DNA of 64,000 nt from Raillietiella orientalis (Eukaryota). This document shows, one piece after another, positions 2,142 to 24,399 of the stretch (positions are counted from its first letter, which is position 1; the number at the start of each line of letters is the position of its first letter). Where the stretch lies: positions 310,001-374,000 of the forward strand of contig JAYWIR010000076.1 in the NCBI GenBank assembly GCA_036172245.1, given 5' to 3'. Both the position numbers and the translations under genes were made by a program. The notes beneath the pieces are model-generated. The model was not told the origin of the DNA. It worked only from the letters and a program-made list of their open reading frames with translations, and did not search any database.

Positions 2142-2143
2142 TA

Positions 2144-4062: not shown

Positions 4063-4141
4063 CGTCGTCAAAATGTACGACGCCAAGATGAAGCGGATGA
4101 AAGCACGGAGACGAGAGCGAAGAAAAACACGTCCGCACCCG

Positions 4142-4816: not shown

Positions 4817-6358
4817 TCACCCCCCTGTCCACCCTCCTCCATGGGGGTGGCCGGATCGACGGCTTCCGAGCGTGGGAATTCCTCCTCCGAACTTCCCACG
4901 CTGGCAACGGATTCCGTCTTCTCCTCCTCGTTGTTGGAAAGTTAGGCGCCTCCTGGGCTTCTGGGACTTGCGTGCCGACTTCCTGGGGGGTGCCTCCGAG
5001 GTGGAGGATGTACTTCCGGCCCCCAGGTCTAACTCACCTGTGGGGGCTTTCTTCGCCGGAGCCGGCCTTCGCACGTCCTTGCGCGAGGGGTTCTCACGCT
5101 CGGCCAGCGTGACCGCGAGCTCCTCCGCCGCCTGCGCGAACGCGGCGTCCGCGGCTTCGACCGCCGCTATGTCGCGCGGCTCACCCTCTGTGTGAACAGA
5201 GGGTTCGCCGTCGCGAGCCTCTGGCGCAGCGGAAACGGCAAGGGGAGGATCGACGCTCCGGGTGGCAATCTCGGGAACGACGATTCGTTCCAGTGCCACC
5301 GTGCACTCGCGCAAAGTTTTCGAGCGCGGACCGGGTTTCTTCGGCTTACCGGCCGTCTTGCCCTCTTTGCTCTCCGCGGGTGGGAGTTTTCTCGGCTTTC
5401 TGGCCTCTACAAGCTTCCATCCCTCTTCGCCTTCCACCGTTTCAGAAGGTTTATCCTCCGGCTTACGCTCCGGAGGTTGAGGTGTTGGCAGGTTGTGCTG
5501 GCCCTTTTCTACTTTAGGTCTAGAGACCTTTGAAGCGCGTTTTGCCTGCACTTTTTTCGCGGCAGGGGGAACCGGGGTGGGGTGTTTGGGACACACGCGC
5601 CGAACGTGGCCCCGCTCCCCGCACAAATGGCATTGTATATTGGGACACCTTTTACGTAGGTGTATCACGGTATCACAATGCCCGCAATACCGGGGCTTCC
5701 CTACATACCACAGATCGACGTTTTCTTGCGCCACCTGTAGTTTGTGGGGAAGCCCACAATTCTCCCGTATGGTGACCCGCGCTGCAGCCTGCCCACCAAA
5801 AAGGCTATCGAAGCCGTCGAAAATGGAGGGTTTCGGCCACAGTGCGTGCACCTCACCGTATTTTCGCAATTCCTCACCAACCGCTGACCGCGTCATGCGG
5901 CTGGTGATGCCAGTCATGTGGACAACCACGGAGCGGTCCATTGATACTGGCAGGATCTTTCGGCCGTCTACGTTCAGCGGTGCATGGATTAGGCGGTGAG
6001 CCAAGGTGACATCTTTGCAGACCACCTCGACCCGCTGCCCGCCGCTGAGGACGGAGAGGCCGTCCAGATCCTTCTCAGTGACATTCGCGTCCTTCAACGC
6101 TTTCCTGAAGGCGCGCGCTGTCCGGCCGTCGAACAAGTTGCCTACCTGGTGGACAAGCGATGGCTTGTACCCGGAGGCCTTGTATGCGGCCATCTCCGCC
6201 ATGGCTTCTGCGCTGGGCGCGGCCACCATGGCGCTCCATGTCCTCGGCGTGGCCGGGGATGATTCCGGGGCGGCTGCCCCTGCTCCAGTAGGCTGTGGGG
6301 GCGAACTAGCCTCCCCCACTCCCACCTCCATCGCGGTGTCCTCTGCCGTCGTGGCCAT
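4817..6358 (-). CDS. Element B ORF1 (Gag-like zinc-knuckle protein)
   Basis: MATTAEDT start at 6358. CGHCDTVIHLRKRC and CHLCGERGHVRRVC knuckles. Homologous to D/E ORF1. The true 3' end is probably a little further (possible frameshift). Confidence 0.8.
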   Translation of the reverse strand: MATTAEDTAMEVGVGEASSPPQPTGAGAAAPESSPATPRTWSAMVAAPSAEAMAEMAAYKASGYKPSLVHQVGNLFDGRTARAFRKALKDANVTEKDLDGLSVLSGGQRVEVVCKDVTLAHRLIHAPLNVDGRKILPVSMDRSVVVHMTGITSRMTRSAVGEELRKYGEVHALWPKPSIFDGFDSLFGGQAAARVTIRENCGLPHKLQVAQENVDLWYVGKPRYCGHCDTVIHLRKRCPNIQCHLCGERGHVRRVCPKHPTPVPPAAKKVQAKRASKVSRPKVEKGQHNLPTPQPPERKPEDKPSETVEGEEGWKLVEARKPRKLPPAESKEGKTAGKPKKPGPRSKTLRECTVALERIVVPEIATRSVDPPLAVSAAPEARDGEPSVHTEGEPRDIAAVEAADAAFAQAAEELAVTLAERENPSRKDVRRPAPAKKAPTGELDLGAGSTSSTSEAPPRKSARKSQKPRRRLTFQQRGGEDGIRCQRGKFGGGIPTLGSRRSGHPHGGGWTGG

Positions 6359-6450
6359 TGGACACCGACGATGTACACAAAACACCACACAGAAGAAAAA
6401 GCGCTTTCCTACTACTCTTTGGGGAGTGAAGGAAAAACACGTCCTGCAAC

Positions 6451-6649
6451 TGGCCGTGGAGGGTTCTGGCTGCAACGAGGCTGCCAGCTCCTCCGCGGCT
6501 CGCGCAAAGGCTACGTCATCGATGGTGGTGTAGATGACGGACGCCGCCACCGGCTCGCTCTTCTCGCTGTTGACATAGTCAACAGAGGGGTTGTTGTCGG
6601 TAGCGGCGAGTTCTTTTTCGCAGCGGTCGGGAATGCGCTCCACGACAAC
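6451..6649 (-). mobile_element. Element E (D family), middle ORF1 segment between the C and B insertions
   Basis: Encodes VVERIPDRCEKEL...DDVAFARAAEELAASLQPEPST, colinear with D ORF1 (14570-14770). Joins in frame to 19414 across TSD ACGACAAC. Confidence 0.9.
6642..6649 (+). repeat. Target-site duplication ACGACAAC of family C (other copies 17991-17998 and 19414-19421)
   Basis: The identical 8-mer precedes C1, separates C1 from C2, and follows C2. Confidence 0.92.
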
Positions 6650-6657
6650 TGTGGCAC

Positions 6658-6666
6658 GGACGTGTT
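6658..6666 (+). promoter_or_regulatory. Conserved 5' GGACGTGTT motif (DPE-like internal promoter element) in A, B, C1, C2, D and E
   Basis: The same 9-mer lies within ~15 nt of all six 5' junctions although the UTRs otherwise differ between families. The promoter role is inferred. Confidence 0.65.
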
Positions 6667-6736
6667 CTGTGTTGCTCCACGAGCGTGATTCCTTTCCGTC
6701 TTCTTGTGTGTGGTGTGCCCGAGTGCGTCCACTGGG

Positions 6737-8680
6737 ATGTCCACGGAGCCCCTGCAGCAAAACATGGATGTGGAGGCTGCTACTGGCAGTGGAGTCTCTA
6801 CTCCAGATGTCCGGTCCGCCTCTGATTCTTGTGTCTCGCCATCGGCGAGAAGCTTCGCCGCCGTCGTCAAGGCGGCGGCAGCCAGCGGAGCAACGCCCGA
6901 CGAAGCGGAGCTGCAGGCATATGCAGCCCATGGCTACAAGCCTGCGCTCTGCTATCCGGTAAGTGCTGCGATCTCCTACGGGGTCGGAGAAAATCTATGG
7001 GATGAGCTTTTGCGCGTCGGGGTCCGACAGGACGACCTCCTGGCCGTCATGCCGGTTAACGCGCTCGGACACTGGGAGGTGCAATGCAAAGAGGCATCCC
7101 TAGTCCAGCGCCTTCTCCGCACCCCGCGAAATATCCGCGGGAAGGAGGTCGTCCCGTCGGCCATGGACCAGTCGTTCGTGGTCGGATTATCCGCCGTCCA
7201 GGTGGACACGCCCGATCGCGTGCTCGTTGCTGCACTAAGTGCATTCGCCACGGTGCACGCGCTGTGGAGAGCAGAAAATCCGATCAAAAGGACTGCATCT
7301 CTTCACAGCGGACTTGCCATGACGCGTGTCACCATGGCGGATAGGAGGCAAATGCCTCCGCACTTGCAGGTGGGCGATGCGATCGTCCACCTTAAATTTG
7401 CCGGTCAGTGACCGGCTTGCGACATTTGCGGTGCCGAGGACCACCGTCCGTGGACGTGCCCTTCACGCAACTGCCGCTATTGTAAACAGCTCGGCCACTC
7501 CATCAAAGAGTGCGCCAAGCTAAAGAGAAAGCGGCAGGCGAAAAGCCGCCAACAATCGACCCCGTCCGCGCCGAAAAGATTTCCCGTTGTGCCACGGGAG
7601 AAATCGGGCGCGAAGGGCGGGGCATCTTCGAGTAGAGGTCCCGCGAAAAAGGGCGCGGTTGCTTCAGGAAAGCCACCATCCCAGACAACCGCGCAGACGG
7701 GAAAGATGCCACGTCGCTCTGGGGGCAAATCGCCCCCTTCGAAACAGCCTAAGAGTGCGGGCACGCACTCAATCAAGGCTGCTGAACCGTCCGCGTCCGC
7801 TTGCGCGTCCAGCGGAGCACACGGGAAACCGTGCGCGGGTACCCTCGGAGCTGCCTCTGAACGGCAGTTTCCTCCTACGGCGGTGGAGATCACTTCATCC
7901 ACGCCGAAGGCACGGGCAGCGAAGGCTGCAATAGCGCCTCGCGGGACGACGGCAATGACCGCCGTTTCGCCCGCATCGGCTAAGGAGCAGGTGCAGTGCG
8001 TAACGGGGACGGAGCCGTCTCCCGCCGCGAGCGCGAAACGTGATCCGGCATCTCCGGCCAAACAATTGAGGGAGGCGTCGGCCTCCCAGGAGGGCGTCCC
8101 CGACGCGGGTTGGACTCGAGTCTCCAGGACGCCCACAAAGGGGAAGAAGAAGGTTGACCCTTCAATATTCCCCATCCTTAAGGTGGGTGGGAGGCAAAAG
8201 AGAAGCACGCCGAAGAAGGTGCGTACCCAGGTACGCACTACGGCTGCGTGCTCTGTCTCCGTCGCTTCGCGCGAGAGGGCGGCTGCGGAAGCCAAAGCTC
8301 CGGAAGCTGCGTTGGCGACTGCGACGACACCCGCGCGGGCAGGGCAAGCCTCCACCTGCCGAAACAAAAAGAGACTGGCAAAACGCCAGTCTCGCGCCAG
8401 GCACTCGGACTCCGAGGTGGAGTCTGAGTGCAAACAAATGGAGCGCGCATCCCGGGGTAAGTCGGTAGCGCGCCGGGCTTAGGTGCGAAAGCACGAGACT
8501 GTTGCCGGAGGCGGTTCCGGCTCCTGCACGGAGACCGAGGCGATGATCCTCGGCTCCCAGGACTCAGCTGGGCGCGATGTGGCGGCGAACGGGAGCGATT
8601 CCGCTTCCCAATCCCCTCTCCTACCAGCTGACTTCTCGCCGGACGGGGCGAGGAGCACGCCGTCATGTCCGCAGCAGTGA
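6737..8680 (+). pseudogene. Element C1 ORF1, two in-frame stops (7409-7411, 8480-8482)
   Basis: ORFs 6704..7411, 7589..8482 and 8483..8680 are in one frame. Knuckles CDICGAEDHRPWTC and CRYCKQLGHSIKEC follow the first stop. Confidence 0.85.
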
Positions 8681-10394
8681 TGCGTGGACTCGCGTCCGCT
8701 CGTCGCGTCAGCGTGGCCTGTTGGAATGTCAACGGGCTACGTGATGCTGACAAAAGGCGGACGGTAGCCAACGCTTTGCGCGCGTTCGATCTGGTGCTGC
8801 TGCAGGAGATACATAGCATCTCCGTACGGCAGGCATCGGATCTGGAAGAGCGCGCGGGCAGGACGCTACACTGGCGGCAAGGCTCCGCGCACACGTGCGG
8901 AGTCGCGTTCCTCGTCCGAGGCAGGGTGGCGGAGGCGGTGCGGAACGTTTGTTTCGACGAGGAAGGTCGTGTGGGCCAACTTGTCCTCAAGTGGTCCGAA
9001 TCGATCGACCTGGTCGTTACGAACATCTACGCGCCGAGCGGCGGCCGGCATTACGCCCAGCGACTTGCATTCCTGGGTGGCCTGCGCAGCCGCTGGCTCG
9101 CTGACTCCGGCCCTAACGTGGCGCACCTCCTTGCAGGAGACTTCAACGTCCACCTGCTAACAGAGGAGAGATGCCGCTTGAGGGAGAAGCAACTGGTGAG
9201 CGAGGTATGCGCGTACGTGCGCGTGCAAAACTTGCTTGCTGGTGAGCCCGGGATGGAGAGATCGCCAGACCATGCGTTCCTCGATGAACACCTGCTCTCA
9301 CGAGTAGGTCGGAGAGGGCGCCTGCTGTCCGCGATTTCGGATCATCCTAGACTGGAGTTCGAGTTCCTCCCGCCTGGCAAAGGGCCTCCGATGAATGTCT
9401 GGAGGTTGCCGGCCGACTGGCTTAGCAATTCGGAGGCGGCGGAGCATCTCCGCCAACACCTCCGGGGCTTCGCCATCTGTGAACTCGAGGACTGGGACGA
9501 TCTGAAAAGATCTGTCCGCGAGTTCTGCTGCCGGTTGTTCTTGCACCTGCTTCCCCGCGGCTTCGGGGAGGGTGTCGCGAACAGCAGATCCTATCTGCAG
9601 GCGCGTACCTTTTCACGATGCCCGGACGTCCGGCGTCTGGCGGAGTATAAGGCCAGGGCCGAGCGCCAGGTTTAGCAGTCTGGAGCGGCTTGTCTGCTCG
9701 ATGACGCTGGCCAGGAATGCTCGGCTGCAGCCGAAGTACACCGCGTAGTCAAGCGCTACTGCTCCTCTTTGTACGCGGAGGAGCCCACGGAACGCAGTCT
9801 CTCCGAGCTGCTTCTTCCGACGGGCAACCCTGCTATCGACGAGGAGGAACGCGCCAGATTGGGTTGGCCCTTCACGGCGGAAGAAGTATCCTCTGCCATA
9901 GCGGGCCTGAAGAGGCGTAAGGCGCCTGGGGAGGATGGCCTGCCCGCGGAGTTTTTTCAGTGCTTCGCGGCGGAGCTCGTCCCCCTGGTGCTAAGCCTTT
10001 CCTCGCTGATGCGTGAGACGGGAGATGTTCCCGCTTCTTTCCGCTCAGCAAAGGTGCGGCTCCTGCCGAAAGGCGGTCATTTGCGCCACCTCAGCAACTG
10101 GCGTCCGATCACATTGGTGAATTCGGACGTCAAGTTGTTCTCCAGGCTATGGGTCGCGCGCCTGGGAAGAATCGCAGAGTCCTTGGTAAGTCCGGAGCAG
10201 ACGTATGCTGTTCCGGGTCGGTCCATGGACGCGAATCTCTTCTTCGCGCGAACATGGTTTGAGTGTCAGCAGCGCGTGGCGCAGCAGAGCCAGGCAGCCG
10301 AAATCGCCGCTGCCAAAGGAAAGCAGCGGTGTTCAAGGCACGATGGAACGCCGGGAGCCTTAGCGGTCGCCGTCGATCTCTGCAAAGCGTTCGA
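8665..10394 (+). pseudogene. Element C1 ORF2, 5' half (APE + RT up to KAFD)
   Basis: WNVNGL, LQEIH, GDFN, SDH, KAPGEDGLPAEF, WRPITLVNSDVKLF, AVDLCKAFD; stop at 9673-9675. Confidence 0.92.
10383..10394 (+). repeat. 12-bp TSD of element D: CAAAGCGTTCGA (partner CAAGGCGTTCGA at 15925-15936)
   Basis: Removing D and one TSD restores VDLCKAFDSVNQDLLLELLERLGLP in C1 ORF2. Confidence 0.92.
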
Positions 10395-10613
10395 TTTTCA
10401 CCCGGATTTCGCCGGGGCGTTAATTGTAAAATAAACATTTACAAAGACGTGCGGTGGCTGGACCATTGCTCCAGCCACGCACGAAGAAACACAGAGCCTG
10501 CCGGGTCACCAGTTCGCAGACCGGTACGGTCCACCACGGCAGCAGGGGGAAGGGGGAAAAAACAAAAAACAAAACAAAAAAGAAAAGAAAAGTTGGGAGG
10601 GTAAGGGAAGGGA

Positions 10614-13600
10614 TCACAGTTGCTGGTGGGGCCGTTGCATCCTTTGCAGGATGCCAACAAGCTCCTTCTGTATTCCTGGATCCAGGTGGGGCCATCGGGA
10701 CGCCCTCCTCAGGAACTGGGAGGCTGGCTGGATGGCACCCTGGTCGCGTTGTCCTCCCGTAGCCTTGCTCCAAGCGGTGACGATCTTGCGTAGGCAGCAC
10801 AAAGCTGCTAACGAGGCCGCTGGCCGAAGGGCGTCGGCAACGAAGAGGGCTTTCAGTGCGTCCCTGGGGTTGCCGCAAGGGATTCCGATGGCCGCGGCAA
10901 AGCGACACCAAAGGGGCCGAAGGGCAACACAATCCACTAGCAGGTGGGGGAGGGACTGCCGTTCCCCACACCTGACGCAATTGGGGTCCACAGATCCCCA
11001 GGTCCAGTGGTGTCGGCGGGCGTTGCAGGGGAGTCCCCAGTGCTGCAACAGGAGAGCCGACTCCTGCCATTTTAAGGGGAGGGCGGAAGTGTTCATGAGC
11101 ACCAAGGGCCACTTCAGATGTTCAATGGGAACATCGAGCAGCGCGCCCCAGCGCAGAAGTTTATTGGGAGGCGTAGTCGGGGTCGCAGCGTCTGTTAACT
11201 GGCCCGTCTTCCACTCTCCTATCTTCTTCTCCTTTCCGGAGATTGTTACTGTAACCACCCACTTCGCCGCAACATCGCTGTCCAGATCTTCCATCAGGGA
11301 GGGCAGCGCAGCAGCGAGGGGAGTTCTTCCTGCCCACGCTCTCTTCTTTGGATCCTCCAGGATCTCGCGGAGCGTGCAACTTCTGTAACCCCCAAACAGG
11401 AACCCTCGTTCCTGTTGGGAGCGTTGCATGCCGAACTGTCCCCACGTTCGAACGGTTTCCTGCAACCAGGCACTACCGTTAAACGGGCGACAGGTGAGCA
11501 ATCCTGGGTTTTTCCGATACAGCGCAGCCACCCTCCGTAGCTGGAGTCCGCATCGGTTGAAGCGGCGACGGAGTCCAAGAAACGACGTCAGTCCCGTCTT
11601 GCCGGTGGCTTCTTGGAGAATGAGACGTGCAAGGACGCACCAACAGGTGCACCACAACTCTGGAACGAGTGCCGACAAGCGGAACTGGAGCTGAAGCTCC
11701 AGCCGCTATAGCGTCAGAGGCCCAGACCACTATCCCGACGAGGAGCGCACAAGTCCTTTAAGCGGACTCGGGCCCTCCCGTTGCCCCAAAGGCCGATACG
11801 TAGGAGGTCCTTTGTCCGCTTTTTAATCCTCTCTGTGGGGGGGCAAACAAAAAGCAGGGGGCAGAGGAGAGGAGCCGCGAACGTGTTCCAAACCGCGGCC
11901 CGTTCAGGCAGGAAAAACCTGCCGCCTCGGAACGGGCCGATTGCCGTCTCTACTTTTTGAAGGCAGCCGGATCACGCTTCCGCAGGGGAGTAGTCCCCCA
12001 ACGGAACACCAAGGTACTTGAAGTACCTCACCGTGGGGATCCCCAAACGGACCCAGTCCTGCTGCCCTGCCCACGCCGCACCAGCTGAAATCACGGACGA
12101 CTTCGCCCTGTTCACCGTAAGTCCGGTTCCCCGATGCAGCAGGTCGAAGAACTCCTCGACCGCCGCAGCCGGGGTGGACATAGGGAGCAGCAGCAGAAGG
12201 TCGTCCGCGTATGCTGAAACGGCCGGCGTACCGGCACAGTCGTGCGGCAGGTGCGCCAGAGTTCCCCTGTGCGCTCTCAGTACCAACTCAAAGTAGGTAC
12301 TGAAGAGCAAGGGGCTCAGGCTGTCTCCTTGCCGGATTCCACGCCGCACCGGCACGCCGTGCACGGTCTGCCCGCTGAAAGTAACATTGATGAGCGTGTC
12401 GCGCCAGCAGGAGCGCAGATAGGCCACTAATGAAGCTGGGAAGCCCAAGCGTTCCAGAAGCTCCAGAAGGAGATTCTGGTCGACGCAATCGAATGCTTTC
12501 CGCAAGTCGATTGCGACCGCAAGGGCTCTCTCCCCCACCCGACCATCCAACCCCCTACCTGCGCACGAACCGGAATTCCGGCTGCGCACCAAACTCCTTT
12601 CATGTTGGAGCTCTAGCCAGGTGGAAGCGTGGAACAGGTTCGCCTCCATGCTTCGCCCGGGAACAGGATATGTCTGTTCCGGGCTGATGAAGATGTTGGC
12701 AACCCGTCCCAGACGCTCTGCCCACATCTTGGCTATCAACCTGGCGTCCGCATTCACTATTGTGATGGGACGCCAGTTGTTCATGCTCCTCAGATCTCCT
12801 CCCTTACGGAGGAGCCGCAACTTTGCCGAAAGAAACGAGGCGGGAACGTCACCTGTTTTGCGTATCAGCAAGGTGAGTTGCTGTACCATGGAGGTAAGCT
12901 CAGCCGCGAAAGTTTGATAAAACTCCGCGGGCAGGTTGTCCTCCCCTGGAGCCTTTCGCCTCTTGAGCTTTCCGATGGCCGATAGGATCTCGTCCATCGT
13001 GAAAGGCTCGTCGAGGGTCTTTCTCTGCTCCTCCCCGATCGCTGGAGCGCCTTCCGGAAGCAGGAGTCGTGAGACGTTCCTCTTTGGAGGTGCCCTGGCA
13101 TACACGGAGGAGTAGTAACTCCGCAGCAGGCCGCGGATTTGGACAGGTGCCGAGTGCTCCTGGCCCTGATCGTCCAGTAAGCTGGCCGATCCGGACTACC
13201 AGGCTTGCCTCTCGGCTCCCGCTTTGTATTCCGCCAGCCTGCGGATGTCGGGGGTCCTGGCGTAACGACATGCCTGCAGGTAGGCTCGTTCGTTACGGAC
13301 CCCGGTCCCAAAACCCGTAGGTAGGCGGTGCAGAGGGAACTGATCGCAGAACTCCTGCACTGACCCCTTGAAGCGGTCCCAATCCTGGAGTGTCCGCAGC
13401 CTGAAGCTCCGTATGAACGTGCGGAGATGTTTTGCCGCGTCCGGGAGCTTTAGCCAGTCCCCTGGAAGACGCCACGCTGACGAGGGGGGGCCCTTGTCGT
13501 GCGGATGGATCTCGAGGACTAGCGGGCGATGGTGGGACAGCTCGCACGGTAACTTGCCGCGCCTGCCCACGCGAGGGCACAGGTGCTCGTCAAGAAACAC

Positions 13601-14194
13601 GTGGTCAATGCTGTCTTCCATCCCCGGTGCACTGGCCAACAGATTACAGGTGTGCACCGCCATGCACACCTAGTTGACCAGGTCACGCTCGGGATTCTGC
13701 TCATCTGGTTTCAGGCGAACGTTGAAATCGCCTGCCACCAGATGGGCATTCCGCACGCCTGCTTCGGTCAGCCAGTCTCGCCGGAGGGCAAAGAAAAACT
13801 GTTTCCTCGCCCTCCTGTTCATCAGGTCCTTGCCGCTCGGTGCGTACACGTTCGTGACGATCAGATCGATCGAGTCGGACCACCTGAGAGTCAGCTGGCC
13901 GACACGACCGTGATCATCGAACCGCACGCCCCGAGCCGCGGCCTCGACGGCTGGCCGAAGCAGGTAGGCGACACCGCAACTTTTCGCTCTCCCACACCTG
14001 TACCATAGCCGCCCTCCGGAGATCCGTTCGATCTCTTACGCTTGTTCTGCAGAGATCACGTGGATCTCCTGCAGCAGCGCAAGGTCGTAGGACTCCAGAA
14101 GAGCGGCCATGTCTCGTCTCCTGCCGGCGTCTGTCATGCCGTTCACGTTCCAAACGGCGATGCGCAGACGACGGCGGGAGGAAATTCCCGGCAT
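10614..14194 (-). pseudogene. Element D ORF2 (APE-RT-C-terminal zinc motif), several nonsense codons and a frameshift
   Basis: ORF pieces 13670..13927, 13196..13669, 11972..13105 (IDLRKAFD, GIRQGDSLSPLLF, YADD, FKYLG) and 10614..11678 (CVRCGERQSLPHLLVDC). Confidence 0.92.
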
Positions 14195-14208
14195 TACTGC
14201 TGGGAAGA

Positions 14209-15828
14209 TTAAGGTGTGGGGGAGCCCTCCTCTTGCGAGGCGGGCGGGATGTCCATGGGGGTTTCGGCCTTCTCAGGCACCTGAGGCACCTGTCCGGCCC
14301 TCACCCCCTCCATCCCCTCGGTGTACGTGCGTGGGAGTCTCTCGGGCGACGGGTCCCGAGAGTTTCCCACGCTCATGGCACCCTCGCTTGCGGAAGCCAT
14401 CTCTTCCCCTTCGACGGGGGAGACGAGCTTCCTTGGCTTTGTGGAATTACGTCCAGCCTTCTTGCGCGGTGCCGTGGAAACGGAGGCTGCGCTTCCGGCC
14501 TCCACCTCGGGGTCGGAAGTGGGGGATTCCTGAGGGGAGGCCGAACGCCTGACGGCCTTCTTGCCAGCCTTGGAGGGTTCTGTCTGCAACGAGGCTGCCA
14601 GCTCCTCCGGGGCTCGCGCGAAGGCTACGTCATCGATGGTGGTGTCGATGACGGACGCCGCCGCCGGCTCGCTCCCCTCGCTGCTGACAGTGTCAACAGA
14701 GGGGAGGTCGTCGGTAGCGGTGAGTTCTTTCCGGCAGCGTTCGGCAACATCGAGAACGCGTTCGACAACGACGCTGCACTCTTTAATAATCGCGCTACCC
14801 TGCTCTTTCTTCTTCTGTTGGTAGGCGATTTTCTTTTCCATCATCCTCTCCTTCTTTGATTTTTTGGCCGTTGCCACTTGCCACTTAGTCTCCTGACCGG
14901 CTCCCTCAACTTTTTCGGCGTTGGTCGCCGAGGTCTCGGAAGCGGCCTGGGTCTTGGGCGCGGGTGGCACAGCCTTCGCGGCAGCTTTCGCCGCCAGCCT
15001 TTTCTGCAGAAGCCGGGCGCGTTTTTTAAGGTTTCTCTTGGAAACCACCCGCACTGCTGCTTTTGGGCACACCTCCCTCGTGTGGCCCATTGTGCCGCAT
15101 ACTTGGCACTGCACATTGGGACACCTCTTTTTGAGGTGGCCCGACGTATTGCAGAAACCACAGTATTTCGGCTTCCCCACATACCAAAGGTCGACGGTTT
15201 CGCCTTCGACCACCAGTTTGTGGAGAAGAGTGCAGCCCTCCCGAACGGTCACGCGCGCAGCAGTGAGGCCGTGTTGCAGCCCCGTGTAGTCCTCGAAAGG
15301 ACTTACTTTCGTCCACTGCGCGTGGACCGTTCCGAACTGTTCCAAAACGGCGCGAACCTGTTCTTTGCGCATCCGCGCGGTGACGCCTAACAGGTGGACC
15401 ACCATGCTGCGGTCCGCCGTAGTGGGGAGGAGCCTGCGCGTCCCCATCACAGCGGGGGTTTTAAGCAGTCGTTGGGCCAGCTCTGCATGTTTGCAGATGA
15501 CCTCAACGTACTGACCCCCGCTGCGGATGGTCATAGCGCTGAGCTCCTCCTCTTTCACATCAAGAGCGCGCATGCCCTTCGAGAAGGCGCGCGCGCTCTC
15601 TAAAGAATAGAAATTGCCTACCTTGTAGAACAATGAGGGGTTGTACCCCACCTCTACATAGGATAACAATTCCGCCGCGGCTGCAGGCGATGGCGCCGAC
15701 ACAACGGCGCTCCACGCCCGCGCTGCAGCGGGGACCGATTCTATGGGGGCGGATGCCCCCACCTCCATCGCCTCTGAGGGCGACGTTACCGCTGCCCCCT
15801 GGCCATCCCTGCGGGTCGCGTCAGGCAT
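14209..15828 (-). CDS. Element D ORF1, intact, 539 aa Gag-like zinc-knuckle protein
   Basis: MPDATRRD start at 15828; CGFCNTSGHLKKRC and CQVCGTMGHTREVC; open to 14209. Confidence 0.88.
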   Translation of the reverse strand: MPDATRRDGQGAAVTSPSEAMEVGASAPIESVPAAARAWSAVVSAPSPAAAAELLSYVEVGYNPSLFYKVGNFYSLESARAFSKGMRALDVKEEELSAMTIRSGGQYVEVICKHAELAQRLLKTPAVMGTRRLLPTTADRSMVVHLLGVTARMRKEQVRAVLEQFGTVHAQWTKVSPFEDYTGLQHGLTAARVTVREGCTLLHKLVVEGETVDLWYVGKPKYCGFCNTSGHLKKRCPNVQCQVCGTMGHTREVCPKAAVRVVSKRNLKKRARLLQKRLAAKAAAKAVPPAPKTQAASETSATNAEKVEGAGQETKWQVATAKKSKKERMMEKKIAYQQKKKEQGSAIIKECSVVVERVLDVAERCRKELTATDDLPSVDTVSSEGSEPAAASVIDTTIDDVAFARAPEELAASLQTEPSKAGKKAVRRSASPQESPTSDPEVEAGSAASVSTAPRKKAGRNSTKPRKLVSPVEGEEMASASEGAMSVGNSRDPSPERLPRTYTEGMEGVRAGQVPQVPEKAETPMDIPPASQEEGSPTP

Positions 15829-15924
15829 CGCTGCCTGATCGACCACCGAACCACACGACGCTTGCACTGGGGAAGACTTCCTGTCACGAGGAGCACCGAG
15901 AAAACACGTCCACCCTGGAGCGCA

Positions 15925-17785
15925 CAAGGCGTTCGACAGCGTAAACCAGGACCTCCTTCTGGAGCTTCTGGAACGCCTAGGCCTCCCGACGCACCTCATC
16001 GCCTACTTGCGCTCCTGCTGGCGCCACGCGTTATGCTGTATCTCTTTCAGCGGGCGTCACGTGTACGGTGTTCCCATACGGCGGGGTATCAGGCAGGGAG
16101 ACAGCTTAAGCCCCCTGCTCTTCAGCATCTTCTTTGAGTTGGTGCTGAGGGCGTACAGGCTGACGCTGGCAAACCTGTCGAGCTCCTGCCCGGGAACACC
16201 GGCCGTGGCTGCCTATGCTGACGACCTTCTCCTGCTGCTGCCCATGTCCACCCCGGCATCCAGGCTCGAGGACTTCTTCGAGCTCATTCGTCGGGGAGCG
16301 GGCCTGAGCGTGAACAGGACGAAATCAACCGTTGTACCGGTTGGCTTTACGTGGGAGGGGCAGTCCGACTGGATCCGCCTGGGGATCCCCACGGGCAGGT
16401 GCTTGAAGTACCTCGGCGTTCCCTTGGGCGCCTTCTGTCCAGCAAAAGCGTGGTCGGATTGCCTTCACAAGACCGAGACTGCTCTGGGCCCGTTCGAAGG
16501 CGGCAGGTTTCTCCTGTCGGAACGGGCCTTCGTGTGGAACATTTTCGTTACCCCCCTCCTCCGTCCCCTCTTTTTTGTTTGTCCACCTCCCTACTCGGCT
16601 AAGCGCCGGGCGCAACGCCTGTTGCGTATCGCCCTGTGGGGACCGGCGAGGTCCAGGATACGCCTGAAGGACTTGGCGGCTCCTCGGCGGGATGCAGGAT
16701 TGGGCATCCTGACGCTGGAGCGGATCGGACTGCTAGTGCAGTTCCTCATGCTGGCACTTTGTGCCCAGCTCTATACTACTCCCTGGTGTGCTCCAGCGCG
16801 GCTGCTGCTGCGGCGCTGCACGGATGGCGACGGACTGCGTTCGTTGCATTTGCGCACGGAGCGCGTTTTAAAAGGATCCGGCTTCCCTCTGAAGCAGCTT
16901 GCTTCGGTTCTGGAAAAGCATTGGTGGATCTCCTGCCGGCCGACGAACTTCAACGCCTGGAGGCAGGAAGCCTTATCGTCCTGGGCAGCGCAACAGGATG
17001 TGTCCCGTTTGGAACTCCGTTGCGTGAAACTTTCCCCATACTGTCCAGTGGGGGAGGTGCTGGAAGACCAGGACCAGTGGACACGCCTAGCCGCTACGCC
17101 ACTCGCCGGAGCACTGTGTGCACTGATGGTGCGAGATGACAGTGACCTGCCGGCGAGGTGGGAGATCACTTGCGAAATCGCATGCGAAACCCGACTGCTG
17201 GGCGGCTGGCGGACTTGCGAAGTGGCAGACGCTTCCACACCCCGCATTCTTGCAAAGGGGCTTCTCCGGTGGAGTGAGCTCCTCGGGGTGCCCACCGATG
17301 AACTTGTGGTCCCTTCTGCGTGTTTGGACGCGACTCTCTTCCCCCTTCGGTGGAAGCAGGACGCTTTTCTGCTGGTGCATTGGGGTTTGTACTGCAACCA
17401 GCGGGCGCACCTGATTTCCGGGGGAGTTGCGTCCCCGAACTGTGCCAAATTGGGAGCGGTGGAAACGCTTCCGCATTTGCTGTTTGAGTGCGGTGCCCTC
17501 CAGGAGCTGTGGCAGCGGCTGTCTTTAGCGCTCCTGCACCCTGGACACACCGCACTGGATTGGATGCGCCGCTTCTACACGCGTGGCGGACTTTCTCTTG
17601 GAGCGGTCGTCGCAATCATCTGCTGCGTCCGCGCCATTGTCAGGGCCCGCCACGTATTGCAGATGCGAGCAGTCCCAACATCGGTCCCCGACACCGCAGC
17701 CTGCAACCTGCAAATGGCTGCCGGCCGGCCACACCTGGGAGCAGAAGTGAGGACGGAGATCGGCGGCATTCATTGCCGGTTCTGA
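15925..17785 (+). pseudogene. Element C1 ORF2, 3' half (RT from KAFD to C-terminus), open frame
   Basis: KAFDSVNQ, GIRQGDSLSPLLF, YADD, LKYLG, ETLPHLLFEC, ending EIGGIHCRF*. Confidence 0.92.
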
Positions 17786-17960
17786 GAATAGGAACGGTTA
17801 GACAGTATACCCCTGTCCCCGCCCTCCCACCCAGTTTATTTATTTATTGTCCCACCCCCTCCCGTTCCGAACTCTCAGTGTGCCCGGACTGCGTTCCGGG
17901 AAATCTACTCCCCATTTTCTCTTCCCCTTGCCTGGGAACACAGTTCTCAGTTGATATTTT

Positions 17961-17990
17961 AATAAACGTCCCGGCGCAACCGGGTAATAA
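17961..17990 (+). terminator. Conserved 3'-terminal AATAAA + CCCGG-loop-CCGGG hairpin + short A-rich tail (also in D, C2, F, H)
   Basis: C1 AATAAACGT-CCCGG-CGCAA-CCGGG-TAATAA; F AATAAACGC-CCCGGG-CGTA-CCCGGG-TGTAA; D (minus) AATTAACGC-CCCGG-CGAAAT-CCGGG-TGAAAA. Confidence 0.8.
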
Positions 17991-17998
17991 ACGACAAC

Positions 17999-19413
17999 TG
18001 CCGCACGGACGTGTTATGTGTTGCTCCTCAAGCGTGATTCCTTTCGGTCTTTTTGTGTGTAGTGTGCCCGAATGCGTCCACTGGGATGTCCACGGAGCCC
18101 CTGCAGCAAAAGATGGATGTGGAGGCTGCTACTGGCAGTGGGGACTCTTCTCCAGATGTCCGGTCCGCCTCTGATTCTTGTGTCTCGCCACCGGCGAGAT
18201 TCGCCGCCGTCGTCAAGGCGGCGGCAGCCAACGGAGCACCGCCCGACGAAGCGGAGCTGCAGGCATATGCAGCCCATGGCTACAAGCCTGCGCTCTGCTA
18301 TCCGGTAAGTGCTGCGATCTCCTACGGGGTCGGAGAAAATCTATGGGATGAGCTTTTGCGCGTCGGGGTCCGACAGGACGACCTCCTGGCCGTCATGCCG
18401 GTTAACGCGCTCGGACACTGGGAGGTGCACTGCAAGGAGGCATCCCTAGTCCAGCGCCTTCTCCGAACCCCGCTAAATATCTGGAAGACCAGGACCAGTG
18501 GACACGCCTAGCCGCTACGCCACTCGCCGAAGCAATGTGTGCACTGATGGTGCGAGATGACAGTGACCTGCCGGCGAGGTGGGAGTTCACCTGCGAAATT
18601 GCAGGCGAAACCCGACTGCTGGGCGGCTGGCGGACTTGCGAAGTGGCAGACGCTGCCACACCTCGCATTCTTGCAAAGGGGCTTCTCCGGTGGAGTGAGC
18701 TCCTCGGGGTGCCCACCGATGAACTTGTGGTCCCTTCTGCGTGTTTGGACACGACTCTCTTCCCCCTTCGGTGGAAGCAGGACGCTTTTCTGCTGGTGCA
18801 TTGGGGTTTGTACTGCAACCAGCGGGCGCACCTGATTTCCGGGGAAGTTGCTTCCCCCTAACTGTGCCCAATGCGGAGCGTTGAAATCGCTTCCGCATTT
18901 GCTGTTTGAGTGCGGTGCCTTCCAGGATCTGTGGCGGCGGATGTCTTCAGCGCTCCTGCACCCCGGACACACCGCACTCGATTGGATGCGCCGCTTCTAC
19001 ACGCGTGGCGGTCTTTCTCTTGGAGCGGTCGTCGCAATCATCTGCTGCGTCCGCGCCATTGTCAGGGCCCGCCACGTATTGCAGATGCGAGCAGTCCCAA
19101 CATCGGTCCCCGACACCGCAGCCTGCAACCTGCAAATGGCGGCCGGCCGGCCACACTTGGGAGCAGAAGTGAGGACGGAGATCGGCGGCATTCACCGCCG
19201 TTTCTGAGAACAGGAACGGTTAGACTGTATACCCCTATCCCCGCCCTCCCACCCAATTCATTTATTTATTGTCCCACCCCCTCCCGTTCCGAACTCTCAG
19301 TGTGCCCGGCCTGCGTTCCGGGAAATCTACTCCCCATTTTCTCTTCCCCTTGCCTGGGAACACAGTTTCCAGTTGATATTATGAACAAACGTCCCAACGC
19401 AACCGGGTAATAA
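17999..19413 (+). mobile_element. Element C2, internally deleted 1.4-kb copy of family C, tandem to C1
   Basis: 17999-18480 matches C1 6650-~7134; 18481-19413 matches C1 ~17060-17990. Both termini and TSDs are kept. Confidence 0.93.
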
Positions 19414-20611
19414 ACGACAACGCTGCATTCCTTAATTTGCTCGCTTGCCTGCTGTTTTTTCTGGCGGTACGCGAGCTTTTTCTCTAATCTTCTTTCTTTT
19501 TTTGTTTTTTTGGCTGTTGCCACCTACCACCCAGGCTCTTGGCTAGTTCTCTCGACTTGTTCGGCGTTGTTCGCCTGGGTCTCGGGTGAGGCCTCAGCTT
19601 TAAGCGCGGGTGGCACAGACTTCGCGGCAGCTTTCGCCGCCAGCCTTTTCTGCAGAAGCCGGGCGCGTTTTTTAAGGTTTCTCTTGGGAACCACCCGCAC
19701 TGCTGCTTTAGGGCACACCTCCCTCGTGTGTCCCATTGTGCCGCATACTTGGCACTGCACATTGGGACACCTCTTTTTGAGGTGGCCCGACGTATTGCAG
19801 AAGCCACAGTATTTCGGCTTCCCCACATACCAGAGATCGACGGTTTCGCCTTCGACCACCAGTTTCTGGGAAAGAGTGCAGCCCTCCAGAACGGTCACGC
19901 GCGCAGCCGTGAGGCCGTGCTGCAGCCCTGTGTAGTCCTTGAAAGGACTAACTTTCGTCCACTGCGCGTGGACTGTTCCGAACTGTTCCAGAGCGGAGCG
20001 AACCTGTTCTTTGCGCATTCGCGCGGTTACGCCTAACAGGTGGACCACCATGCTGCGGTCCGCCGTAGTGGGGAGAAGCCTGCGCGTCCCCATCACAACG
20101 GGGGTTTTAAGCAGTCGTTGGGCCAGCTCTGCATGTTTGCAGATGACCTCAACGTACTGACCCCCGCTGCGGATGGTCATAGCGCTGAGCTCCTCCTCTT
20201 TCACATCAAGAGCGCGCATGCCCTTCGAAAAGGCGCGCGAGCTCACTAAAGAATACAGATTGCCTACCTTGTAGAACAATGAGGGGTTGTACCCCTCCTC
20301 TACATAGGCCGACAACTCCGCCACGGCTGCAGGCGATGGCGCCGACACAACGGCGCTCCACGCCCGCGCTGCACCGGGGACCGATTCTGAGGGGGCGGAT
20401 GCCTCCACCTCCATCGCCTCTGGGGGCGACGTTGCCGCCCCCCCTGGCTCTCCATCGCCTCTGGGGGCGCCGTTGCCCCTGCCCCCTGACCATCCCTGGT
20501 GGTCGCGTCAGGCATCGCTGCCTGATCGACCACCCAACCACATGACGCAAGCACTGGGAGAGACTTCCTGGCACAAGGAGCACCGAGAAAACACGTCCGC
20601 CCTGGAGCAGG
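19414..20611 (-). mobile_element. Element E (D family), 5' end and ORF1 N-terminal part
   Basis: Roughly 95% identical by eye to D over the knuckle region. ATG at 20515; short tandem duplication ~20409-20485; GGACGTGTT at 20590-20598 (minus). Confidence 0.93.
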
Positions 20612-22711
20612 CAAGGCGTTCGACTGTGTTCACCAGGAGCATCTGTTGGAGCTCCTAAGTCGCATGGGCTTCTCACCCTCCTTGATCACTTACCTGCGTT
20701 CTTGCTGGCGTAATGCGATTATCTGCATCTTTTTCAGCAGTCAGAAGGTGTATGGCGTGCCGGTGCGGCGGGGCATCAGCCAGGGCGATAGCCTGAGTCC
20801 CCTGCTCTTAAGTACCTACTTTGAGTTGGTGCTGAGAGCGTACAGGGTGACTTTGGCCCCTTTGCCGAGCTCGTGCCCCGGCACGCCCGCTGTAGCAGCC
20901 TATGCCGACGACCTTCTGCTCCTCTTACCTATGTCCACCCCGGCGAAGGCGTTCGGAGACTTCTTCGATCTGCTCAGCCGTGGGACAGGACTGCAGATCA
21001 ACAGGGCGAAGTCGTCGGTGCTGCCAGTAGGTGCGGCGTGGGCAGGGCACTGGGTCCGTCTGGGGATCCTCACGGCGAGGTACCTCAAGTACTCGGTGTG
21101 CCGTTGGGGGACTACTTTCCTGCGGAAGCGTGGTCCAGGTGCCTGCAAAAAGTCTAGACGGCGATCGGCCCGTTCCTGGAAGGCAATTTTCACTTGCCGG
21201 GACGGGCCGCGGTTTGGAACGCCTTTGCGGCACCCATCCTCCGCCCCTTGCTTTTTGTTTGCCCCGCCTTAGGAGTTGTTAAAAAGAGGACGAAGGTTCT
21301 CCTCCTCATCGCCCTTTGGGGCAAGGGGAGGCCCCGAGTCCCTCTGAAGGACTTGTGCGCTCCGCGTCGGGACGGCGGTCTTGGACTCCTGACGCTGGAG
21401 TGCGTGGAAATCCAGCTGCGATGGCGAACCCTCGCCATCGCAGCGAAGATGTGGAGCACCCCTTGGTGCGTTCCGGCCCGCCTCCTTGCCAGGCGTGAGT
21501 CCCGATGCGAAGGACTCGCGTCGTTTCTTCTGTGCCCTGGCCGGAAGATTCGAAGATGCGGCCTTATGCTCGGACGAATAGCAACCCTGGCGAAGGTGAC
21601 CGGTTGGGTGGTTTGCTGCCCCGCCAACTCCTCTGCCTGGCTGGAGGAGACTGCAGGCACCTGGGCCAAGCAGAACCGGAGAAGAGAAGAGAATATAAAC
21701 TGCCTGCGAATCGGCCCATACGCCAACCGCACTCTGCGGGAAATACTGGAATTTCCCCGGAGTCTCAGGTGGGCGTTGTCGACTCCCCTTGCTACGGCGA
21801 TGCCCTACCTCCTGAGGGCGCTTCAGGATCGCCAGAAGCCGAGGTGGCAAGTCACTTGCCAGATCGCAGGCAGGGAGAAGATGTTAAGTGGCTGGACCAC
21901 AGGAGAACTGGCGGACGCCACGACCCCGAGCGTCCAGCCGCGTGGATTGATGAGATGGGGCGAGCTGCTCGCTATCCCTACCGATGTGCTGAATTGGCCC
22001 CCGGTACTCAAGGAATCCAGGATCCTGCCCCTTAAGTGGCAAGAGTCGGCGTTGCTACTGCTTCACTGGGGTTTACCCTGCAACGCACGCCGCTTCCACT
22101 GGACAAGGGGATCTGTGGATCCTGAATGTGTCAGGTGCGGAGAGCGGGAATCGCTCTCCCACCTTATTGTGGACTGTGCTGCCCTCCGACCCCTCTGGGA
22201 ACGGTTCGGGACAACCCTCGGGCTCCCTACGGGCAGCACCCCCAGAGACGTTCTTCGGCCCCTCTTCGTGAAGGACGCACTGCAGCCAGCCGCAGCCATC
22301 GCAGCCTTGTGCTGTGTCCGTGGCATCGTGGCGGCATGGAGCGACGCCAACTACGGAGGAGTGGGTCCACACGCGAGGGATGTCATCCCATATGCCCAAC
22401 GGTTCTTGCGGAGAGCTGCCGGGTGGCCCCAACTGGGGAATATGCGGATGGACCTCGAAGGTTTCCTTCAACGGATGGGCCCTCCTCACAGCGAGTAGTG
22501 ATCCCTTCCCTGCCCTTCAACTTCTTTTTGTTTGTTTATTTTTTATTTTTCTCTTTGTTTTACCGCCATCCCTTTTCTTTGATATGGAACGCTACGCCGG
22601 GCTGCGTCCCGGCGTCCCGGCAGGTCCCGTGCGTATGGCCGTTAGCGGGGTCTTGTACTGCGTATGCAGGGTATTTTTAAAATAAACGCCCCGGGCGTAC
22701 CCGGGTGTAAA
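20612..22711 (+). mobile_element. L1/Tx1-clade element F, 3' half (RT from KAFD, C-terminus, 3' UTR); probably B family
   Basis: Starts KAFDCVHQEHLLELL, has YADD and CVRCGERESLSHLIVDC, stop at 22498, AATAAA + hairpin 22681-22705. Family assignment is inferred from the target site shared with B. Confidence 0.9.
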
Positions 22712-22873
22712 CCTCCAAGGCTGGCAAAAAGGCAGTTAGGCGTCCGGCCTCCACCGAGGAGTCGGTAACTTCCGACCTCAAGGCGCAGGCCGGAAACGAA
22801 GTTTCCACCTACGCGGCACGCCGCCGGAAGGCTGGAAGGAAGTCCAGCAAACCCCGGAAAGCCCTTCTCCCAG
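22712..22873 (+). mobile_element. Element G, D-family-like ORF1 fragment (host of F)
   Basis: Encodes SKAGKKAVRRPASTEESVTSD...RRKAGRKSSKPRK, matching D ORF1 SKAGKKAVRRSASPQESPTSD...RKKAGRNSTKPRK. Confidence 0.85.
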
Positions 22874-23148
22874 CCGGCGATGGATGCCGGAGAGATCGCC
22901 GGCATCCATCGCCGGTTTTCAAAGGAAACAACGGACTCACCAGAGACCCCTGTCCCCTGCGTACCATATTTTTATTTTTATTTTTTATAGTAGTGTTTTT
23001 GTGGTCCTTTCCCTGCCCTTCCGGACTTTCGCCATACCCACCTGCGTGTCGGGGATTCCACCCCTTTGGTATCTTGTTTTCCCCTTTGTCCAGGAACTCT
23101 GTTCCCGGATAGTTTTTTAATAAACGCCTCGACGCACCCGGGTGATAA
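22874..23148 (+). mobile_element. Element H, 3' terminus of a C/A-subclade element with a 17-bp 5' inversion
   Basis: EIAGIHRRF resembles the C terminus of C (EIGGIHCRF), followed by a T-rich UTR, AATAAA and a degenerate hairpin. Confidence 0.75.
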
Positions 23149-23296
23149 ACAACCGCCCCCCCGCGATCGTTTCGATCTCCTGGGCGTCTTTTGCGGTGAT
23201 CACGTGGATATCCTGCAAAAGCACCAGGTCGAAATCTCGCAAGGTGGCGGCTGTGTCCCGTTTGTTTCGGTCGTCGCGCATCCCGTTGACGTTCCA
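23149..23296 (-). mobile_element. Element I, B-like APE fragment
   Basis: WNVNGMRDDRNKRDTAATLRDFDLVLLQDIHVITAKDAQEIETIAGGRL, colinear with B 4420-4570. Confidence 0.85.
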
Positions 23297-24399
23297 TAAA
23301 ATGGAAAACCAGCAAAATAACCATTTTACTGACCTCAAAATATTAACCGTTCACTACGGTCTCATGAAAATACACAAATATTTTGCGTTGCACTGAATTT
23401 TGCATGAATTTTTTGTCACCACGTTCTACCTGATTTTACAAATACATATTTCAAATATAATGGGGTCACACGTTATTCCTTTAAAAACTAAGGTTAAAAA
23501 ATTGCCATGTGCCAAAAAAATGAAATGAACTCTAGAATCTGAAGTAAAAAAACTCTGCAACAAATTGTTTGAATCCCTTTATCTATGCCTTCATGAAGGA
23601 CTATAAACTCTGAAGCACCTTGCAGAACACCTCATAAGCTTTGGTATTTCCAGGCAGATGTCATAATAAAACAATGATGTTCAGACACATGGTAAACTTA
23701 TTGCACAAGCTCGGAGCAAAGGATTACCTGTTACTCGCATCTTATCCGGAAAGGGTTAGCATTCCCAGAATCCACAGCATGAAACTCCTAGACTGAAACA
23801 TACCATCCTGGGAGCACAGTCGACTGTGGATGGGATCAGATGAGAGAGATGCTAATCAATAGCACCAAATCAAGTAATAACCTTGGCAACCAAACCTCAA
23901 ACAGGACATCTTTATCCTTTTAGACATACAAGAGTACCATACTGTAGTTCCTTCGTCAAATCTCTCAAATAATGGGATCTCTCCAAGAACATCCTCACAA
24001 ATTCACATTCCTCATCCGCCAGAGAGCAAGCATGCCACTTGCTACAAGTCAACAAACTGCACCAACTCCCACTTCTGCAAGAACTACTCCTCATCCCACA
24101 AGCAGACCATCTCCTTACATCACACTCCAATCTACAGGTGATGATTCTCATCTCAAAATTTCCTCCTCTATAACTGAACAGCAAGATTCCATTTCAAACT
24201 AGTTTCAAGGGAAAATTGCGCGATTTGCAATCACAACCAAAAGATGTACAAACATGCCAGTTAGCCATGGATACACTGAACGATGTCAACCATACCATTT
24301 ACACATACTTTCGAACCCTGGGTGCAAGCCCAACCTTCGAAGGACCTACCCAGGAGATTACAACCCCCAAACACATCCACCCCTTATATAAGCTCTTTC

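Follow-up and report, generated by a model that had tools for sequence, protein, structure and literature searches.

The question raised by this locus is whether a retrotransposon can be aimed at fixed nucleotides within the genes of other retrotransposons. The sequence is a stretch of 64,000 nucleotides from Raillietiella orientalis (assembly GCA_036172245.1, contig JAYWIR010000076.1, positions 310,001 to 374,000 of the forward strand; hereafter the window), and its positions 1-23,300 are a nest made wholly of related L1-like non-LTR (non-long terminal repeat) retrotransposons, or LINEs (long interspersed nuclear elements), with APE (apurinic-like) endonuclease, RT (reverse transcriptase), and zf-RVT regions. 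Two members of one family, D and E, interrupt the RT genes of two different host elements, C1 and F, at the codons for K-A-F-D of RT motif A (the KAFD site). Based on their junctions, the D family would probably be a sequence-specific, or very strongly site-preferring, L1-like element that targets the DNA for K-A-F-D, part of RT motif A, in sibling families of LINEs. The anatomy described here derives from self-BLAST, a tblastn map made with the window's own translations, and a direct reading of every junction.

The target, called T1, is the 12-mer CAARGCGTTCGA, whose exact occurrences were counted in the window with shuffled sequence as the baseline. There are four, at 424-435 (−), 10383-10394 (+), 15925-15936 (+), and 20612-20623 (+), whereas the shuffles contain 0.02 copies on average and none of 100 reaches four. 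This baseline is generous since the motif lies in homologous RT genes, and the real test is whether element termini adjoin it. D (10395-15924, −) is flanked by a left copy, CAAAGCGTTCGA (10383-10394, +), which adjoins its 3' A-tail, and by a right copy, CAAGGCGTTCGA (15925-15936, +), which adjoins its 5' end. C1 runs ...GTCGCCGTCGATCTCTGCAAAGCGTTCGA (read as ...GTCGATCTCTGCAAAGCGTTCGA) up to 10394, where the antisense 3' end of D, TTTTCACCCGG..., begins; the antisense 5' end, ...AAACACGTCCACCCTGGAGCGCA, stops at 15924 and C1 resumes with CAAGGCGTTCGACAGCGTAAACCAG. D splits the RT of C1 at the K-A-F-D codons, with a TSD (target-site duplication) of 12 bp carrying one G/A mismatch, or possibly of 14 bp, the CA at 15923-15924 being ambiguous. 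Because element A can be aligned to C1 to the left and right of D (A 424-2189 with C1 10394-8632 and A 43-437 with C1 16317-15923 by self-BLAST), D is a simple insertion in a contiguous host.

In F, the antisense 5' end of E, ...AAACACGTCCGCCCTGGAGCAGG, stops at 20611 and is followed by the host's CAAGGCGTTCGACTGTGTTCACCAG, the T1 copy at this junction being CAAGGCGTTCGA (20612-20623, +). The spacing from the junction to the GGACGTG motif is 13 nt in both D and E and, because D and E lie on the minus strand and C1 and F on the plus strand, both insertions are antisense. Both D-family copies (two of two, a small sample) are thus found at T1, at the same nucleotides and in the same orientation, and of the three non-D RT copies in the window that carry the site, two, C1 and F, have it filled. 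The third, in A, holds a perfect empty site (424-435, −), which reads GTCGATCTCCACAAGGCGTTCGACTGCGTAAACCAG without interruption. The 12-mer and its neighboring bases are conserved in A, C1, and F, the string that marks the site in RT genes being AAGGCGTTCGAC. An earlier note on this DNA had described the 12-mer copies around D inside the C1 RT, the contact of the E 5' end with the same 12-mer in F at equal spacing to GGACGTG, the antisense placement at the same KAFD-codon nucleotides in two divergent hosts, and the perfect empty site in A; the positions, the junction reads and, for A, the self-BLAST bear out these observations.

A public sequencing run that holds part of the stretch (n = 1, word share 0.24, Logan contigs) was compared over positions 9900-16500. 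The results given are those of the rows listed, among which there are no flanks of other D termini; the run has 237 loose ends and 401 pieces beyond them. Among the rows listed, only empty host sites appear. One contig bridges 10245 and 16004 with 216 letters, or 149 + 67 nt, as a host would if D and one copy of the TSD were missing from it. Three contigs read ...CGCAGTCGATCTC directly before 15923, as an uninterrupted host does, and the loose contig end at 15923 gives the uninterrupted host as ...GTCGATCTC followed by CACAAGG. The joints of this run between opposite strands (10137/10166 to 12685; 12438 to 16045) were rejected as not real, these being cross-matches between the RT genes of C1 and D, which are homologous and inverted.

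What is observed directly is where and in which orientation the elements lie, their duplications, the empty sites, and that the two T1 events are independent. The best reading of these observations is sequence-specific TPRT (target-primed reverse transcription) in which each family is aimed at the coding sequence of another, an account that we regard as likely. In this case, the complex of the APE-type endonuclease and ORF2 (open reading frame 2) would nick the host sense strand between ...GCGTTCGA and C (after ...TTCGA), and the freed 3' OH would prime reverse transcription of the D RNA from the short A-tail behind AAYWAACGYCCCGG-loop-CCGGGT. Since priming would occur on the host sense strand, D would end antisense to the host. 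The other strand would be cut 12 bp away (upstream), producing the duplication CAAGGCGTTCGA, and a full-length cDNA would be attached by a defined 5' end that lies 13 nt ahead of GGACGTGTT. The strand and position proposed for the first nick are those that the geometry of TPRT would imply. For E, the 3' junction would be expected as ...GGGTGAAAA followed by TCGAACGC and then the antisense upstream half of the F RT. The ORF2 endonuclease or an accessory DNA-binding part would supply the specificity, as in Tx1L and R1.

The termini of the elements are relevant to this proposal. The 5' ends visible in the window, six in number (A, B, C1, C2, D, and E, at 4126-4137, 6436-6448, 6650-6666, 17999-18015, 15903-15924, and 20590-20611, respectively), are without exception full length, and in each of them an exact GGACGTGTT lies at 3-13 nt from the junction, behind a leader that starts with TG (CCTG in E). 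The families that share this motif otherwise differ by 25-40%, and it is possibly a shared start-site/promoter element or an end-joining signal; its occurrences at 40254, 55645, and 62696 were considered as further 5' ends and discarded as unrelated sequence. The 3' ends have in common AAYWAACGYCCCGG-loop-CCGGGT with 3-4 A's behind it, and this motif is present in exact form in D, C1, and F and in degenerate form in C2 and G. The 3' hairpin folds in D, C1, and F with z values of only −1.2 to −1.6 and gives no fold in G, so that what is claimed for this motif is conservation of sequence alone. The terminal signatures of the D family are ...CCGGGTGAAAA at the 3' end and ...CTCCAGGG[C/T]GGACGTGTT at the 5' end. 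Also, the TSD length is fixed per family, being 12 bp for D, 7 bp for C, and ~10 bp at T3 (described below). Defined ends together with A-tails of 3-4 nt are typical of site-specific LINEs.

A different source of precision would be RNA-guided homing, in which the nicked target pairs with the 3' read-through of transcripts from resident copies and the endonuclease is only mildly selective, a process described for R1. Behind every copy at T1 stands TCGAACGC..., so transcripts that read through would pair with the nicked strand ...GCGTTCGA; the A-tails have only 3-4 nt, and the tandem of C1 and C2 with a target repeat between them fits the re-use of half targets or read-through templates. Nonetheless, this process leaves the very first insertion into a site unexplained, and the precise 5' ends require another explanation. 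Then, read-through pairing is a live alternative or a helper to endonuclease specificity, although as the explanation of the T1 insertions in its own right we consider it unlikely.

Recurrent targeting is not peculiar to D, and other families of the nest also use fixed sites in each other. The heptamer CGACAAC (T2) occurs three times, at 6643-6649, 17992-17998, and 19415-19421, bracketing C1 and C2 in ORF1 of E; both elements lie head to tail and antisense to this ORF, with CGACAAC before C1, between both, and after C2. In D, the homologous stretch is uninterrupted and T2 is empty (14763-14769). The C family would use T2 in D-family ORF1, in antisense orientation and with CGACAAC as its TSD. 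As a separate observation, the D stretch beside T2 (14754-14766, +), GAACGCGTTCGAC, agrees with the KAFD target CAAGGCGTTCGAC in 11 of its 13 bases and has the A/C boundary in the same place, and the D 5' leader TGCGCTCCA is identical to E antisense sequence beside T2 (AATGCGCTCCACGAC, 6634-6642, +). These likenesses may be due to chance or may be a clue to target recognition.

The third site, T3 (CCTCCAAGGC), is found in G at 22712-22721, directly after the 3' end of F, ...GGGTGTAAA; what follows this end, CCTCCAAGGCTGGCAA, is ORF1 of the D-like element G. At the homologous ORF1 position in E, the 5' end of B follows ...CCTCCACGGC (...GAACCCTCCACGGC), with a T3 copy at 6453-6462. In D, T3 is uninterrupted and reads GAACCCTCCAAGGCTGGCAAG (14567-14576, −). 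The evidence for T3 consists of two half-junctions in two D-like hosts, which bracket the same ~10 bp, both in sense orientation. The B and F elements would use this site, approximately CCTCCAAGGC, in D-like ORF1 in the sense direction. In total, six of the eight visible insertions lie on three fixed sites (T1, T2, and T3), and the remaining two, A in the endonuclease of B and G in the endonuclease of H, lie at sites used once. According to our rough estimate, a second random insertion would fall within 2 nt of the first, on the same strand of a 5.5-kb host, with odds of ~5e-4, and two or three such coincidences of position are not credible as chance.

These figures bear on the possibility that targeting is regional, with LINEs drawn to the cluster (by chromatin or by the LINE array, as proposed for Zepp) and a loose nick preference, the coincident sites being chance or mild hot spots. 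Every insertion seen lies inside other LINEs of one cluster, two of the eight (A in B and G in H) are at once-used sites, and excerpts of the Zepp literature state that Zepp "targets existing copies" with no site named in them (PMC8226300). However, regional attraction would have to accommodate three separate coincidences that are exact to the nucleotide, in each of which orientation and family pairing are also the same, when for ~21 event pairs even one coincidence is ~1% likely (again a rough estimate of ours), and T1 was used in two hosts that differ at a quarter of their bases. We find this explanation quite improbable.

The weight of T1 depends on whether D and E record one event or two. 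Over the 5' 1.2 kb, D and E are 91% identical without gaps (1045 matches and 101 mismatches), and 289 of 331 ORF1 residues are identical, whereas the host sides, C1 and F, are 72-76% identical (71-77% right at the junction). Per 100 columns, the insert side has 89-100% identity and the host side 64-77%, and the step down lies exactly at the junction; mismatches are 101/1146 and 73/298, respectively (Fisher p = 6e-12). Similarly, dS (synonymous divergence) is 0.197 for ORF1 of D and E (331 codons) and 1.30 for the RT of C1 and F (160 codons), which agrees with the claim of the earlier note that the hosts are divergent and the insertions independent. One family inserted on two occasions, as D and as E, into long-distinct hosts. 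The omega value of 0.34 between D and E indicates that much of their divergence arose in lineages that were still functional or under selection.

The same comparison limits explanations based on a single entry. In one of them, D entered one RT once and then spread by gene conversion or recombination between flanking RTs, in a homing-like manner and without a site-specific endonuclease. The hosts are indeed homologous around the site, where the 12-mer and its neighbors are conserved in A, C1, and F, and the nest is dense with homologous DNA. Nonetheless, the flanks of D and E, 71-77% identical beside the junction, contain no co-converted tract, a host dS of 1.3 is too high for efficient homologous exchange, the 12-bp duplication, A-tail, and defined ends are marks of TPRT, and the process would need to be invoked separately for T2 and T3; it is therefore very unlikely. 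Finally, duplication of one host-plus-D composite, segmentally or by retrotransposition as a unit, with later divergence of the copies, would suit the single continuous 2,006-bp self-BLAST alignment (80%) across both junctions (14765-16720 with 19414-21400) and the identical junction sequence, but it predicts equal divergence of insert and flank and is contradicted by the step at the junction (91% against 72-76%, with the Fisher p value above), by the synonymous divergence of 0.20 in the insert and 1.30 in the host, and by the different first three nucleotides of the 5' ends (TGC in D and CCT in E), leaving it next to no probability.

Several observations weigh against sequence-specific TPRT as the explanation of the nest. 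Just two D-family insertions are available, both within one 23-kb nest, and E shows a half-site only because its 3' junction and the upstream half of F fall outside the window. Between the two TSD copies of D there is one base difference, which becomes three with a TSD of 14 bp. The sequencing run may be the window's own sample and hence not independent support. For T2, the tandem of C1 and C2 could stem from unequal exchange and not from two insertions (omega of C1 and C2, 0.70). A comparison of the three nick contexts (TTCGA^C, GTCG^T, and GGAGG^G) gave no convincing shared motif. Moreover, the insertion site of G, an element that is D-like but clearly different (48% amino acid identity in ORF1), is an endonuclease gene instead of KAFD, and a decayed D-like C-terminal/3' fragment at ~60063-60359 (−; ~70% nucleotide and 37% amino acid identity) has no recognizable RT host beside it. 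This shows that the relatives of D are not all bound to KAFD.

The K-A-F-D codons of D itself (12489-12500, −) read GAAAGCATTCGA followed by T, with two mismatches to T1 within the 12-mer and a third at the base that follows the proposed nick, all of them silent; that is, the RT of D encodes K-A-F-D as GAAAGCATTCGAT (D-like silent variant AAAGCATTCGAT), with three differences from the target and the same peptide, and the site is unoccupied. These silent differences would protect the KAFD codons of D. The T3 equivalent in B itself also differs from T3, and both cases, with one copy each, hint at self-immunity through codon choice. The three silent differences in D also mean that a silent escape is available to hosts, which weakens the proposal of the earlier note that the motif is a site that hosts cannot easily change. 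Its further statement that insertion destroys the host RT applies to the copy that is hit, where RT motif A is split, and does not extend beyond that copy.

How do these insertions compare with known systems? Known targets of site-specific LINEs are rDNA, telomeres, small RNA genes, microsatellites, and a few DNA transposons, and Tx1L of Xenopus targets the DNA transposon Tx1D. R1 and R2 in the 28S rDNA and TRAS and SART in telomeric repeats insert by nucleotide-exact, orientation-fixed TPRT, their 3' ends being defined and their sites occupied repeatedly or in tandem. The excerpts available from Kojima and Jurka (2015; PMC4640811), which include a general statement on target-specific LINEs, list transposons among LINE targets and Tx1 and R1 as target-specific clades encoding APE. 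As in Tx1L and Tx2L of the Tx1 clade of L1-group LINEs, the D family combines an APE endonuclease with an RT, inserts with a TSD at a single fixed sequence and in a single orientation, and has its target within another transposable element. The difference from Tx1 is that the targets in the nest are protein-coding sequences of sibling LINEs (RT motif A and ORF1 codons) and that targeting goes both ways between families. The likeness to R1, R2, TRAS, and SART lies in nucleotide-exact, orientation-fixed TPRT insertion into a conserved multicopy sequence, although their targets are host genes or repeats and not the catalytic codons of other retrotransposons. R2 differs further in its restriction-like endonuclease and its structure matches much less well, the closest solved relative of A ORF2 being human LINE-1 ORF2p (E = 9e-39, against 2e-14 for R2 proteins).

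In its architecture, the nest is comparable to the clusters of Zepp (Chlorella and Coccomyxa) and ZeppL (Chlamydomonas), where L1-type LINEs insert into copies already present, giving clusters that are GC-rich and nested or tandem. Zepp-type nested LINE clusters are candidate centromeres of some algae. Excerpts from Blanc (2012; PMC3446292) give a GC content of 61% for Zepp and 53% for the genome, and those from Blanc (2012) and Craig (2021) describe Zepp and ZeppL clusters as nested, GC-rich, and "targeting existing copies". Zepp arrays are described in these excerpts as mostly 5'-truncated 3' ends of one family, whereas in the nest all six visible 5' ends are full length, several families take part, and only the founder H is 5'-truncated. 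Also unlike Zepp, distinct families of the nest use nucleotide-exact sites in one another. The literature examined, seen in excerpts and with the primary Zepp reports aside, names no target sequence for Zepp, and a fixed site may already be published in those reports. Thus, the behavior of the D family would resemble that of target-specific APE LINEs such as Tx1L and R1, and the architecture of the nest that of Zepp clusters.

A search of the literature, primary Zepp reports not covered, found no description of a LINE that targets the catalytic-motif codons of other LINEs and has its ORF1 targeted by them in turn. A broader picture, which we put forward tentatively and with more doubt than conviction, would be a closed "ecosystem" in which LINE families recognize nucleotide-exact sites in each other's coding sequence (the RT active-site motif, two ORF1 sites, and perhaps endonuclease sites), the only safe harbor for a family being the gene of another. 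Reciprocal targeting would be the missing growth mechanism of Zepp-type clusters, and it would be accompanied by an arms race of synonymous codons. If the observed targeting extends across the genome, it would provide a concrete and testable mechanism for nested LINE clusters staying at one locus and a conflict between transposable elements at nucleotide resolution. Also, several natural APE-type endonuclease/RT systems with distinct targets of 7-12 bp could be compared for the origin of L1-like sequence specificity.

Regarding its composition, the nest is a eukaryotic LINE cluster. The GC content is 0.56-0.63 across it (1-22 kb) and 0.40-0.50 for most of the remaining window. Pfam matches on the long frames are to APE-type endonuclease, RVT_1, and, weakly, zf-RVT, with E = 1.7e-14 for Exo_endo_phos in C1 and, for RVT_1, 1e-9 to 2e-23 in A, C1, and D and 4e-8 in F. 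The apurinic-like endonuclease is N-terminal in ORF2 and the RT comes after it, as in the APE-type L1 group, and the tblastn map shows the endonuclease and RT of D to be collinear with those of C1 and A. Marks of TPRT are the 12-bp TSD and GAAAA tail of D and the 7-bp TSD and TAATAAA tail of C1 and C2. The same map distinguishes at least four families. H contains G, which contains F, which contains E, and inside E there are three insertions: B (containing A), C1 (containing D), and C2 in tandem to C1. On the best reading, successive rounds of insertion, beginning with the founder H at the border to ordinary AT-richer DNA, produced at least five levels of nesting (H, G, F, E, C1, D).

D, identified by Pfam, the tblastn map, and sequence reads, is a full-length L1-like LINE of 5,530 bp with ORF1 at 15768-14212 (two CCHC knuckles), the APE endonuclease at 14200-13205, the RT at 13105-11975, and the C-terminal zf-RVT region at 11678-10617. 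Its 5' end is TGCGCTCCAGGGTGGACGTGTT and its 3' end ...AATTAACGCCCCGGCGAAATCCGGGTGAAAA; in-frame stops at four positions before the RT end and a frameshift in ORF2 mark it as a dead copy. The host LINE C1 (6650-17991, +; Pfam, self-BLAST, reads, and tblastn), within which D is nested, has ORF1 at 6779-8479, the endonuclease at 8665-9672, and the RT at 9769-10394 and 15926-17782, with the 5' end TGTGGCACGGACGTGTT and the 3' end ...CCCGGCGCAACCGGGTAATAAA. C2 (17999-19414, +) is a copy of the C family with an internal deletion, keeping ~490 bp of the 5' part and ~940 bp of the 3' part, 95% identical to C1. The 5' part of E (19422-20611, −), of the D family, consists of the 5' untranslated region and ORF1 residues 1-334, and its 5' end, CCTGCTCCAGGGCGGACGTGTT, adjoins T1 in F. 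E continues beyond the C1/C2 insertion at 6453-6649 (−; D coordinates 1178-1358, 89% identity to D) and is cut at 6452 by the 5' end of B.

The host LINE F (20612-22711, +) extends from its RT at KAFD to the 3' end ...CCCGGGCGTACCCGGGTGTAAA, with its upstream half beyond the left edge of the window. B (4138-6448, −) is a LINE with the 5' end TGCAGGACGTGTT, ORF1 at 6370-4820, and the endonuclease at 4614-4142; it is sense-oriented in E, directly after ...GAACCCTCCACGGC, and is itself cut by A at 4137/4138. A (1-4137, −) is a C-related LINE with the 5' end TGCGGACGTGTT, ORF1 at 4086-2147, and an ORF2 that starts at 2144 and runs off the window; it sits in the endonuclease of B, near residue 161 of the alignment to the C1 endonuclease. 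G (22712-23149, +) is a D-like remnant with ORF1 residues 398-476 followed by the 3' end ...CCCGGGTGATAAA, and H (23150 to ~23300, −), which contains G, consists of residues 20-65 of a B-like endonuclease, being the 5'-truncated founder at the GC drop. The border of the nest is sharp (23290-23320): H ends 5'-truncated within its endonuclease, and GC passes from ~0.6 to ~0.45.

Searches for relatives used both protein and terminal patterns. In metagenome contigs, a protein scan with the C-terminal ORF of D gave 179 pattern matches and no relatives among them. The flank-blind 3'-end pattern ACCCGGN{5,6}CCGGGRCGTTWATT, which finds D, C1, and F in the window, gave 14 loci in metagenome contigs, none of which encodes a LINE relative by tblastn; the same pattern gave four bacterial loci in genome_contigs and the junction pattern one locus in viral_contigs, with LINE similarity in none of the five. 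The protein search with A ORF2 returned one close relative at 62% and others at 34% or less, that with the N-terminus of the C1 RT including its read-through tail a best match of 42%, and that with D ORF1 including the junction read-through no relative; no junction-spanning products were found elsewhere in these protein searches. The Atlas look-up returned generic RT/APE clusters only.

Some features of the window are minor. Its two longest frames, 4817-6931 (−; 704 amino acids) and 14209-15999 (−; 596 amino acids), are chimeric read-throughs across element junctions and should not count as genes; the first runs through the 5' end of C1, the E fragment, and ORF1 of B, and the second through the antisense C1 RT, the 5' untranslated region of D, and D ORF1. 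Rfam gave no match over the whole window at the gathering threshold, nor did Pfam among the 24 longest stop-to-stop frames in 22.7-64 kb. A decayed LINE relic lies outside the nest at 33866-34096 (−), with an endonuclease-like fragment of 32% amino acid identity. In the AT-richer part there is a direct repeat of 845 bp (40207-41051 and 62649-63493, 22 kb apart), unrelated to the LINE nest and with no Pfam match for its frames, whose copies are 97.75% identical and adjoin a weaker match of 250 bp at 73% (39295-39544 with 63497-63745).

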